From Escherichia phage EC22.5-2, in sequence record OR845139: 42,480 nt of DNA; one strand, given 5' to 3'. Positions within the stretch are counted from its first letter, which is position 1, and every line of letters begins with the position of its first letter. Of this stretch, positions 3,453 through 5,553 are shown in pieces. Under the pieces are notes generated by a model, which made no database searches, was not told where the DNA came from, and saw only the letters and a program-made list of their open reading frames with translations. The position numbers were made by a program, and so were the translations under genes.

Positions 3453-3797
3453 ATGCTTACAGTAGACGAAACAGCGCTACTGTGTTGGCGCTTGCTAGAG
3501 ACGCAGGGCAAGTGCGGGTGCCCGTGGGAAATATTCAAAGAGGTTCCAGATGAACTCAAAGGAATTGTACCGGTCGATCGCCGAATACTTAGAGCGCGCA
3601 AGCAAGACTCAACGGTTGTGCTCAAAGCATACCGGGAGTATACAGAATCTGCCGCGCGGAAACTACAAGAGCATATCGCATTTGATGTGGTTGCAGCGCT
3701 ACGGAAGTATAGATATCGCGGAGCTTATACGCAATTTAGAAGAGCCATCCGCTCCTACTACAAGCAGCGACAACTCTCTGCGTGGTATGCACGCTGA
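3453..3797 (+). CDS. Hypothetical protein (114 aa), overlaps the 5' part of the long ORF in another frame
   Basis: ATG 3 nt after upstream stop, aagga RBS 6 nt upstream; conflicts with the 3550 start of the next ORF. Confidence 0.45.
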   Translation: MLTVDETALLCWRLLETQGKCGCPWEIFKEVPDELKGIVPVDRRILRARKQDSTVVLKAYREYTESAARKLQEHIAFDVVAALRKYRYRGAYTQFRRAIRSYYKQRQLSAWYAR

Positions 3798-3843
3798 ACT
3801 TTTAACGTATGATGAGATGCTAGTAACACCGGAGACAAAGAAA

Positions 3844-5553
3844 ATGCAAGAGACTAACAAAGTAACCGTAGATGCAAACGTACCTGCAAATGTACCTGCC
3901 TATGAGGGTTGGACCATCAAATTTCCAGAAGGGGCCAATGCCCTTCCACTGAAGGATAGTATGTACTCTTCCGGGGATTACTGGTGCCAGCTTCCCTACC
4001 TATCAACTCAAGGCCGTGCGCGCGTGCAAAGTAACAAAACCCGTGCGCTTTTGAATGGCTTTTATATGTTGTCAAGGGTGCTGCCGGGGTATCTTGTAGC
4101 ACTCGGCAACTTTACAGATGCAGGAGAGGATTTGGGTGGGGATGTTGGGCCGCTGGGCACGGTTGATATTAGTGATACTCTCCTGCATAGGCTCTTTGAC
4201 TGTGCAGGTACCTGCGGCCAAGCATTCGGTTTATCTAGAAGAACCTTCTATGATGGTCCTGACGTAGTTACAGAACGTGTAGTAGAAGCGGTCCAATACT
4301 TTACCGGATACAAGGTGCACAAACAGGCTATAGAGTTGTTCGAAGAGATGATGCTAACACCTACTCACTCCCTCCGGGCCAAATACCTTTGTGGGTACAG
4401 TGTGTATGATGGGGATTACTGGGCAGTAACCTTGCTTATGAAGTTGCACGGGTTCGTGGTGTCTAGATTTGCAATCCCACTGGGTTTCGGCTTCCGCAAC
4501 GGTGAGCCTGTAGTAATGCTGGGGCAGCCGCGATTACACAAAGACTACGCCGCTGTTACTGAGTATCGCTGTGTAGAGATGCGGGCAGGCAAGTGGCTCG
4601 CTAATTATTACGGAAGCGGTGTAGACTTCCGGGAATGTATTGAAGACCTCAAGGCTATGAACGTGGAGCCTACTACATATCTTTGTAAGACCGAACGGGA
4701 GTGGTACAACGCATACGAGAATGGCCCTAGTAGCTGCATGACCGGATACGACTTCGAGGCTAGCCCGGTGCGTGTATATGCCACGACTAGTCACGGCTTG
4801 CCGGATAATGGGCTGCGCTTGTTCATCCAGTATACGGGTGAACTTTTTGGTGATGACTTTAAAGTGCACGCCCGCGCTATCGTTAACATCGAAACCAATG
4901 AATACGTCCGTGCATACGGGGATGCTGCGGACGCCATTCTACGTGCTAATGGGTATGAGCGCGATACAGATTGCTTAGATGGCGCACTACTGGCACGCAT
5001 TCCGCACCCAGAGGATGAGGGTGCCGTGCTTATGCCATACTTGGATGGGAACCAAGACGGGGTGGATGAAGAAGGGGCAGACGCGTTTCGCATCTGCGCC
5101 TGCTACGACTATGAAGCACAGGACGCTGACGGGTATATTTGGATTGATGGTCGCAGTGCTTGTGCAGAGTGCGGGGGACGTTTCGACGAGGATGACATGT
5201 ACAGAACTTGTGACGGTGGTTATGTATGCCCGCACTGCATCGGTGGTACTTACGTACAGGTAGTAGGACGCAGTCGGGTATATCCAACATGGGATTGCTC
5301 GTGGTCTGACTACCAGGATTCTTGGGTATTCGACTGTGACGTAGAACATTGTGCTATAGAGGGTATAGTGTATGATGAAGAGCCAATGGTGTGCGCACAA
5401 GGGTACAACGTTCTGAGTGGGCATGCCGAAGAGCACCCAGTGCACGGTATGATTCTCACAGAGTATGCTGCGTCCGTATTGGATGAGCCCTACCTCGGTA
5501 ACGAAGAAGCCGAAGAAGACAAAGAAGCTAAAGCAGAACAGGAGGCAGCTTAA
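3844..5553 (+). CDS. Large hypothetical protein with Cys-rich C-terminal region (CxxC pairs) and acidic tail; start uncertain (3550, 3787 or 3844)
   Basis: Long ORF; ggaga RBS 8 nt before ATG 3844; C-terminus contains CAEC, CPHC and further Cys/His clusters; ends EEAEEDKEAKAEQEAA. Confidence 0.55.
   Translation: MQETNKVTVDANVPANVPAYEGWTIKFPEGANALPLKDSMYSSGDYWCQLPYLSTQGRARVQSNKTRALLNGFYMLSRVLPGYLVALGNFTDAGEDLGGDVGPLGTVDISDTLLHRLFDCAGTCGQAFGLSRRTFYDGPDVVTERVVEAVQYFTGYKVHKQAIELFEEMMLTPTHSLRAKYLCGYSVYDGDYWAVTLLMKLHGFVVSRFAIPLGFGFRNGEPVVMLGQPRLHKDYAAVTEYRCVEMRAGKWLANYYGSGVDFRECIEDLKAMNVEPTTYLCKTEREWYNAYENGPSSCMTGYDFEASPVRVYATTSHGLPDNGLRLFIQYTGELFGDDFKVHARAIVNIETNEYVRAYGDAADAILRANGYERDTDCLDGALLARIPHPEDEGAVLMPYLDGNQDGVDEEGADAFRICACYDYEAQDADGYIWIDGRSACAECGGRFDEDDMYRTCDGGYVCPHCIGGTYVQVVGRSRVYPTWDCSWSDYQDSWVFDCDVEHCAIEGIVYDEEPMVCAQGYNVLSGHAEEHPVHGMILTEYAASVLDEPYLGNEEAEEDKEAKAEQEAA

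Follow-up and report, generated by a model that had tools for sequence, protein, structure and literature searches.

Can two open reading frames (ORFs) that share 248 nucleotides in different frames both be genes and, if so, where does the longer of them begin? This is the question raised by positions 3453 to 5553 of a stretch of Escherichia phage EC22.5-2 (sequence record OR845139), which at its full length of 42,480 nucleotides we refer to as ‘the window’; here, a short ORF of 114 codons runs out of frame into a long ORF of 667 (Table 1). A first-pass annotation, made from the letters alone, had recorded both ORFs, each behind a good ribosome-binding site and with the short one sitting tight against the stop of the preceding gene, and all of this is borne out, as is the overlap itself. 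It had then posed a choice, whereby either the long gene starts further downstream or the short ORF is not real. Neither holds: the short gene is real, and the start at 3550 appears to be kept by selection. It is our view that, more likely than not, both genes are real and the 248-nucleotide out-of-frame overlap is functional.

By sequence similarity, the window is a KP34-like podophage of the genus Drulisvirus (Autographiviridae, Slopekvirinae). A megablast search with positions 3000-6000 matched 198 phage records, the nearest being Klebsiella phage KPV811, Escherichia phages phiHAO78-1 and Minorna, and Shigella phage SFN6B (88-92% identity), all four of which belong to Drulisvirus. The locus lies in the early/middle part of the genome, 5′ of the primase and helicase genes, in the local order small ORFs, 114-amino acid gene, large gene, peptidase and primase. 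Comparisons were made over a set of 53 non-redundant Drulisvirus sequences, to which all counts out of 53 refer; the IMG/VR part of the set was gathered with a pattern lying outside the overlap.

A genuine short gene

The short ORF is 114 codons long in each of the 53 relatives, with a ratio of non-synonymous to synonymous variation (pN/pS) of 0.16 outside the overlap and 0.24 inside it, and tblastn finds it in 307 phage records. Homologues at 31-38% identity occur in Bucovirus (Buco gp8), Stompvirus (BF25/12 gp15), Phimunavirus (CB5_12) and Koutsourovirus (phiKDA1 gp13), and their alignment with the short protein has thirteen invariant columns. In these four other genera the next gene overlaps the homologue by no more than 11 nucleotides, and the +1 frame of the distant, non-overlapped homologues carries between 3 and 8 stops. 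Given distant homologues that stand free of any such overlap, and purifying selection in the short frame, the comparisons identify the short ORF as a genuine gene; the 114-codon gene is also the older of the two.

The opposite view, that 3453-3797 is not a gene at all and is a mere shadow of the long gene’s N-terminus, can point to the annotations in which it goes uncalled (KPV811, P252, KPR2, Henu1_2 and, it seems, that of the source) and to a protein product that matches no Pfam domain. It is refuted, however, by the stand-alone homologues in other genera and by the selection seen in the short frame; across Drulisvirus, moreover, the short protein is the better conserved of the two, at 70-95% amino acid identity versus ~57% for the large protein. 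We give this view practically no credence.

The stop codon of the upstream gene (TAA, 3448-3450) falls between the Shine-Dalgarno (SD) sequence of the short gene and its ATG, and TTCAAGGA upstream of that ATG is kept in most relatives. Residues 45-106 of the short protein show a weak match to the N-terminal helix-turn-helix domain of StbA (7pc1; E=0.06). The orthologue of the short protein in phage fHe-Kpn01, g11, proved non-toxic in E. coli and was not detected in particles (PMC7291057).

Two relatives differ in the surroundings of this gene. In phiKDA1 (3501-3827 of our sequence L023) the short-gene homologue is present, with no large gene or peptidase annotated ahead of the primase gene; the small protein can thus occur apart from the large protein/peptidase pair. 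In Klebsiella phage Henu1_2 (L020, 2116-2604) a gene for an HNH endonuclease sits directly 5′ of the short gene, in place of the usual small upstream gene, and the short protein has deviating first residues, MMSVDEAAVFMWKLL.

A start signal and an open frame within the short gene

Inside the short gene lies a second signal for translation. The ATG at 3550 is kept in all 53 genomes, 6 nucleotides downstream of an SD that reads AAAGAGG in 50 of them and AAAGGGG in the other 3. This signal falls in short-gene codons F28-K29-E30-V31-P32-(N/D)33-E34-L35, and the synonymous sites at T27, F28, K29, E30, N33 and L35 are invariant, whilst those of the spacer codons V31 and P32 vary. Codon-usage entropy at short-gene codons 25-36 is correspondingly low (0.22), as compared to 0.56 upstream and 0.82 downstream.

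An alignment of related phages had been put forward at the outset as a means of finding which one of the two frames is conserved. Both are: alongside the constant length of the short gene, 49 of the 53 relatives have a long frame that runs uninterrupted between 3550 and the stop, and the +1 frame is free of stops within the short gene in 50. With the synonymous codons of the short gene resampled according to this phage’s codon usage, and its protein sequence held fixed, 3.3-4.3 stops per genome are expected in the long frame and the probability of encountering none is 0.001-0.011; the control +2 frame contains 4-7 stops, as expected. Taken site by site over the 53 genomes, some 199 stops are expected in the overlapping long frame versus 3 observed. 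At the level of individual codons, Leu35 and Leu57, both with A as the next base, are CTC without exception, where 74% of leucine codons would give a stop; Leu-Lys pairs in the overlap are always written CTC, and Val41 and Val80 (Val-Asp/Val-Val) switch between GTC and GTT. The commonest valine codon, GTA (38% expected), occurs 8 times at these valine positions, 6 of them harmless by virtue of the next base; the two that do make a stop, in AltoGao at Val41 and in genome L060 at Val79, are both found among the interrupted genomes.

Shared ancestry does not account for this avoidance of stops. In a tree-aware simulation (neighbour-joining tree, stop-free consensus at the root, selection on the short frame only, 400 runs) between 15 and 22 of the 53 tips are left intact, with a maximum of 44; not one run reaches the observed 50, and likewise in none of the 400 do the four silent sites of the SD/ATG stay invariant. 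The distance from the ATG at 3550 to that at 3844 is 282, 291, 294 or 297 nucleotides according to genome, always a multiple of three, and pN/pS across the linker codons 84-98 is 0.43 in the long frame versus 0.82 and 0.65 in the other two. Taken together, the start at 3550 and the open frame that follows it appear to be under selection.

The same cannot be said for the residues that the frame encodes. Synonymous variation (pS) of the short frame within the overlap is 0.46, equal to that of the long-gene body in the same genomes (0.39-0.52), such that the amino acids of the leader are free to vary, save for the avoidance of stops. We used this comparison in preference to the long-frame pN/pS for the overlap (1.1-1.2), a value set aside because constraint on the short frame pushes it upward. 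Purifying selection on amino acids in the overlap is found for the short frame only. Over the same nucleotides, the fraction held by the majority residue is 0.71 for the leader versus 0.88 for the short protein, and AlphaFold models residues 1-112 of the large protein with predicted local distance difference test (pLDDT) scores of just 25-54.

Further in-frame ATGs are present in the long ORF at 3787 (M80), 3817 (M90) and 3844 (M99). The first-pass annotation had offered 3787 and 3844 as later starts for the large gene, and the two fare differently. As a general start 3787 is rejected, reading ATG in 31 of the 53, ACG in 20, and ACA and ATT in 1 each. The ATG at 3844 is kept in all 53, with GGAG at 9 nucleotides before it in 52. 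The first G of GGAG is the third base of an NNG codon whose residue may be Q, R, P, E, K, L or T; as the residue varies while the G stays, it is the nucleotide that is conserved rather than the amino acid. From this pattern, 3844 is probably a second, internal start as opposed to the sole one, and two isoforms, of 667 and 569 amino acids, are likely; the smaller would contain all of the conserved domains and have a length like that of the distant homologues.

Table 1. Features of the locus (positions are those of the window)
Feature	Position	Strand	Description	Basis
Short-gene SD	3441..3445	+	AAGGA	read in sequence
Short gene	3453..3797	+	114-amino acid basic protein (isoelectric point 9.8); ATG start; KP34 gp9 / phrog_6167 family	
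Internal SD and ATG of long ORF	3537..3552	+	AAAGAGG 3537-3543, ATG 3550-3552; inside short gene, +1 frame	conservation
Overlap	3550..3797	+	248 nucleotides; long-ORF codons 1-83 on last 82 short-gene codons; long frame +1 relative to short	
Long ORF	3550..5553	+	667 amino acids; ATG start; KP34 gp10 / phrog_6980 family; predicted long isoform	
Linker	3798..3843	+	long-ORF codons 84-98, from end of overlap to M99	substitution pattern
Second SD and ATG	3831..3846	+	GGAG 3831-3834, ATG (M99) 3844-3846; probable start of 569-amino acid isoform	
Conserved alpha/beta core	4672..5049	+	residues 375-500, weakly GNAT-like; S395-C396-M397 at 4732-4740	
C4 zinc-ribbon-like element	5134..5241	+	residues ~529-564 (C538, C541, C560, C563)	conservation and model
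Acidic C-terminal tail	5485..5550	+	residues ~646-667, ending ...AEQEAA; terminal AA at 5545-5550	
Metallopeptidase gene	5553..6587	+	M28/M20-type; start overlaps long-ORF stop, TAATG (ATGA-type junction)	

Bringing these observations together, we propose the following model for how the locus might be read. The small gene would be translated from its own SD, whilst in Drulisvirus its codons F-K-E-V-P-(N/D)-E would at the same time ‘spell’ an SD (AAAGAGG) and an ATG in the +1 frame. At this ATG ribosomes may initiate and read across the overlap, where the final part of the small gene would double as codons 1-83 of the long protein, then through the short linker into the large-protein body; selection appears to preserve the start signal and a stop-free frame, and not the residues of the leader. 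Other ribosomes may initiate at M99, giving a short isoform that lacks the leader, with the outcome being a long isoform carrying a sequence-unconstrained leader alongside the short one. With low confidence, we also suggest that the body of the large protein may work with a peptidase or deacylase on a target.

Several observations weigh against this model. The published proteomics was searched with an annotation that starts at M99. The SD and ATG sit within F-K-x-V/I-P-x-x-L, a motif kept in the short protein for reasons of its own, and so only the synonymous positions can serve as evidence for a start signal. The leader has no amino acid conservation, and distant homologues of the large protein are without one. 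Finally, 4 of the 53 genomes (L016, which is AltoGao, L060, L054 and L047) have the long frame interrupted by a stop within its first 98 codons, at codons 9, 47, 76 and 95 and in every case TAG; three of these lie in the overprinted part and come from substitutions silent in the short gene, whilst the fourth lies 4 codons 5′ of the conserved ATG equivalent to M99 of the window. The leader must therefore be dispensable at least sometimes; it is favoured, not essential, and the four TAG genomes are natural knock-outs of the predicted long isoform. Each of the interrupted leaders has an in-frame ATG downstream of its stop, and an isoform made from 3844 would explain why these stops are tolerated.

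One answer to such points is that the large gene starts solely at 3844, the ORF from 3550 being fortuitously open and extended by gene callers, with no long isoform made. The ATG there is universal and its GGAG conserved, stops occur upstream of it in those four genomes, the leader is unconserved as protein and modelled with low confidence, distant homologues begin near this point, and it is the start chosen by the curators of SU503, AltoGao, KPR2, BUCT631 and fHe-Kpn01, and by Eriksson et al. 2015 (PMC4411677). What speaks against it is an avoidance of stops that far exceeds both chance and shared ancestry, together with the invariant synonymous sites of the SD/ATG at 3550, indels between the two ATGs that are all in frame, and a coding-like pattern of substitution in the long frame over codons 84-98; on balance we hold it to be unlikely, albeit a serious competitor. 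Slightly less likely still, in our judgement, is a reading in which translation from 3550 is real and the leader protein itself is functionless, its role being to deliver ribosomes or to open the mRNA for expression independent of the small gene. This would suit a leader under no amino acid constraint, the downstream in-frame ATG that always accompanies an interruption, and the ancestral arrangements, which depend on tight coupling at the gene junction. An ORF serving purely for delivery need not, however, share the frame of the body, yet the two are continuous in 49 of 53 genomes and separated by indels in multiples of three; this reading also overlaps with the model that we favour, the sole difference being the importance given to the long isoform.

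A programmed +1 ribosomal frameshift, fusing the short protein to the large one, might likewise be imagined, as the long frame is indeed +1 and open over the whole of the overlap. A conserved SD and ATG, however, provide entry to this frame without any frameshift, the +1 frame is closed 5′ of 3550 in every genome, and no slippery site or stimulatory element turned up, although no search was aimed at them; we consider this very improbable.

Overprinted and dual-start genes are familiar from other phages, as exemplified by the internal start of T7 gene 4A/4B, the dual start of lambda S105/S107, the embedded Rz/Rz1 pair and the overlaps of phiX174. The locus described here resembles them in that one stretch of DNA is used in two frames, with an internal SD and ATG inside another gene; as with the dual-start genes, its pair of in-frame starts is likely to produce isoforms of two lengths. 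It differs in that just an N-terminal leader is overprinted, the residues of which are free, selection being confined to the start signal and stop avoidance; and unlike those of the known dual-start systems, the isoforms here are predicted from sequence. Overlapping genes and dual starts in phages are therefore already known, and both ORFs are annotated in KP34; what is new is evidence for an overlap maintained by selection on signals rather than residues. This overlap offers a natural example for calibrating the detection of overlaps, since methods that use constraint on amino acids or on synonymous rate would miss it.

The large protein and its peptidase partner

Profile searches place the large protein in a big phage family that is absent from Pfam, comprising 1371 cluster representatives at E<=1e-3 (clusters at 50% identity) and 432 at E<=1e-10. 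Searches of Pfam, NCBIfam, PHROGs and PDB sequences gave no functional assignment for this protein, nor for the short one, and for the fHe-Kpn01 orthologue of the large protein HHpred gave nothing (PMC7291057 Table S2). Apart from a few weak named matches (amidoligase, LIM, metallothionein, PcfJ-like and N-acetyltransferase; E>=1e-3), a Foldseek search of BFVD yielded nothing but uncharacterized phage proteins. A relationship to PcfJ-like proteins is not supported, with Foldseek E-values of 0.08-0.3 only and no Pfam match.

The protein has a conserved core, for which pN/pS within Drulisvirus is 0.13-0.15, bearing the motifs S395-C396-M397, R442, R454-x-Y456-G457 and P496-Y497-x-D499. Over 92 remote representatives of the family, S395-C396-M397, R442, P496 and D499 are invariant, and Y389, P406, Y410, Y456-G457, Y497, G528, C538, C541 and C563 are at least 90% conserved. 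When residues 285-667 were modelled, confidence was good over 374-654 (pLDDT 84-96), and the elements of the model follow the order of the GNAT fold (beta1-alpha1-alpha2-beta2-4-alpha3-beta5-alpha4-beta6) through beta5, with helix alpha-4 missing. A candidate for GNAT motif A (Q/R-x-x-G-x-G/A) is R454-A-Y-G457-D-A459, in which R454-x-x-G457 stands at the motif-A place and R454 is invariant; the last position of the motif is Tyr in the BF25/12-like lineage and is unconserved in remote members. Searches of Pfam, NCBIfam and PDB sequences gave no match of any kind, GNAT included, whether made with the window protein, with 57 members of the family or with the 92 remote representatives. We describe the modelled core as weakly GNAT-like, and do not claim GNAT membership.

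Downstream of the core, the first-pass annotation had suggested metal binding of the zinc-ribbon kind on account of a cluster of CxxC pairs, with CAEC (C538/C541; 5161-5172) and CPHC (C560/C563; 5227-5238) among them, and this idea finds support within the limits of sequence and model. Three of the four cysteines (C538, C541 and C563) reach at least 90% conservation among the 92 remote representatives, and the fourth, C560, is conserved together with C563 in the closer set; structure prediction, one of the checks originally suggested, puts both CxxC knuckles on confidently modelled beta-hairpins (pLDDT 83-93). The conserved spacing on which the suggestion depended is thus found in the family at large, with the exception of the BF25/12-like sub-lineage, in which the first CxxC pair is lost. 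Curated zinc-ribbon models in Pfam gave only sub-threshold matches for residues 529-564 (zf-Vps39_C, E=0.18; DUF7573, E=0.24; zf-C4_ClpX, E=0.17). Conservation and model together support a C4 zinc ribbon at residues ~529-564.

The acidic tail noted at first pass is also real, and it ends in a conserved Ala-Ala that had gone unremarked. Buco, BF25/12 and CB5 share this ending. Of 146 family representatives left after clustering at 50% identity, 60 (41%) terminate in AA and 82 in A. By our own estimate, chance would give a terminal AA in fewer than 1% of proteins (alanine frequency ~8-9%). The commonest endings are EAA (27), DAA (8), IAA (8) and LAA (7), and position -3 of the 60 AA-ending representatives is E/D in 35 and L/I/V in 17. 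Degrons of the ssrA tag/ClpX C-motif-1 type end ...LAA-COOH; the large protein is like them in having a flexible tail that ends Ala-Ala-COOH and is conserved across very divergent members, and unlike them in that position -3 is usually Glu/Asp (EAA in the window) and not Leu. Some tails do resemble the ssrA tag more closely (...QDENLAA in P0430 and ...SALAA in P0453, from family representatives P0360-P0505). We treat the ssrA-like character of the tail as no more than a lead, and a role in docking the partner peptidase would be just as plausible.

In Pectobacterium phage CB5 (L022, 3842-5587) the large protein is split into CB5_13 (291 amino acids) and CB5_14 (285 amino acids), whilst related Pectobacterium phages (L076/L078, 2906-4681) have one ORF of 584-591 amino acids, which overlaps the short gene by 31 nucleotides.

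The gene that follows at 5553 encodes a product with a Pfam Peptidase_M28 score of 22.3 bits (cut-off 21.3) that also matches phrog_4191, peptidase; HHpred assigns the fHe-Kpn01 orthologue to DapE at 99.8% (PMC7291057 Table S2). Outside Drulisvirus, each of the ten loci examined has a homologue of this peptidase next to the large gene or no more than 4 kb away from it. In Buco, VP93, BF25/12 and CB5 this homologue is the next gene 3′, and amongst five loci from four very distant representatives it follows directly in four and lies ~4 kb downstream in the fifth. The pairing with an M28/M20-like peptidase recurs in distant phages (the metagenome contigs L083-L088, and L011, L012, L022 and L024), amid otherwise dissimilar neighbours such as DNA polymerase A, Thy1, dCMP deaminase and RNA ligase. 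Also new here is the delineation of an extensive, unnamed family that is accompanied by a peptidase in all loci examined; family and peptidase, with S-C-M, zinc ribbon and Ala-Ala as hallmarks, make up a defined module in the early/middle region of many podophages. Homologues of both proteins were detected by liquid chromatography-tandem mass spectrometry in purified particles of fHe-Kpn01 (PMC7291057 Table S2), which shows that they are expressed and is no proof of a structural role.

What might this pair do? With low confidence in each case, we suggest that the large protein acts as an enzyme together with the adjacent metallopeptidase, that its body holds a candidate Cys-containing active site on a GNAT-like scaffold, and that the ...AA tail serves as a recognition signal. 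A more far-reaching reading, which as a whole we rate as doubtful, would see in the large protein and the M28/M20 metallopeptidase an enzyme pair that is widespread in phages and has yet to be described. Within this pair, the large protein would serve as a Cys-dependent acyl- or aminoacyl-transferase of GNAT fold with a zinc ribbon, and its partner an exopeptidase or deacylase, the pair modifying a host or phage target; the acidic ...AA-COOH tail would be, by analogy, an ssrA-like signal (a ClpXP degron or a decoy) or a dock for the peptidase, and the overprinted leader of Drulisvirus would give a second, regulated isoform.

A GNAT-type protein has been described from the same broad phage group, namely Rac, a small GNAT of phiKMV-like phages that triggers cleavage of the RNA polymerase alpha subunit (PMC7552054). 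The likeness would lie in a phage-encoded protein of GNAT type that is linked, in the case of Rac, to a proteolytic outcome; Rac is, unlike the large protein, a small, predicted stand-alone GNAT. The large protein is not Rac: the two are different proteins, between which no sequence relationship was found. In fHe-Kpn01, an acetyltransferase-like protein of 146 amino acids (Gp38) is listed apart from Gp12, the homologue of the large protein (PMC7291057).

Discordant annotation and neighbouring genes

More than 250 Drulisvirus genomes in GenBank, many of them Klebsiella therapy candidates, carry discordant annotation at this locus. Both overlapping genes are called in KP34, Minorna, SFN6B and K66PH128C1; the short gene is dropped in KPV811 and Henu1_2; KMI5 keeps the long start and, instead of the short gene, has a longer ORF with an identical end; AltoGao, SU503, BUCT631 and fHe-Kpn01 keep the short gene and start the large one downstream; and P252 and KPR2 do the latter whilst dropping the short gene. 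As for the window, the protein collection searched contains its 667-amino acid product, from NCBI, whereas the exact 114-amino acid product of the same contig is absent, from which it would seem that the source record is without an annotation for the short gene. We suggest a simple rule, namely to retain the 114-codon gene, to retain the start at 3550 and to mark 3844 as a probable internal start.

A scan of positions 1-8000 for sigma-70 promoters and terminators found sites no more numerous than in shuffled sequence. Upstream of the short gene, at 3247-3450, is a gene for 67 amino acids with 53% identity to SU503 gp09; Gp10 (69 amino acids), the fHe-Kpn01 orthologue of SU503 gp09, is toxic on expression in E. 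coli (PMC7291057). On the other side, 3′ of the peptidase, an ORF of 152 amino acids (6584-7042) matches phrog_4317, with the match confined to the C-terminal part of the latter. In the same position, fHe-Kpn01 has g14 (155 amino acids), a particle-associated protein with a weak HHpred match to type 2 dihydrofolate reductase (PMC7291057 Table S2).

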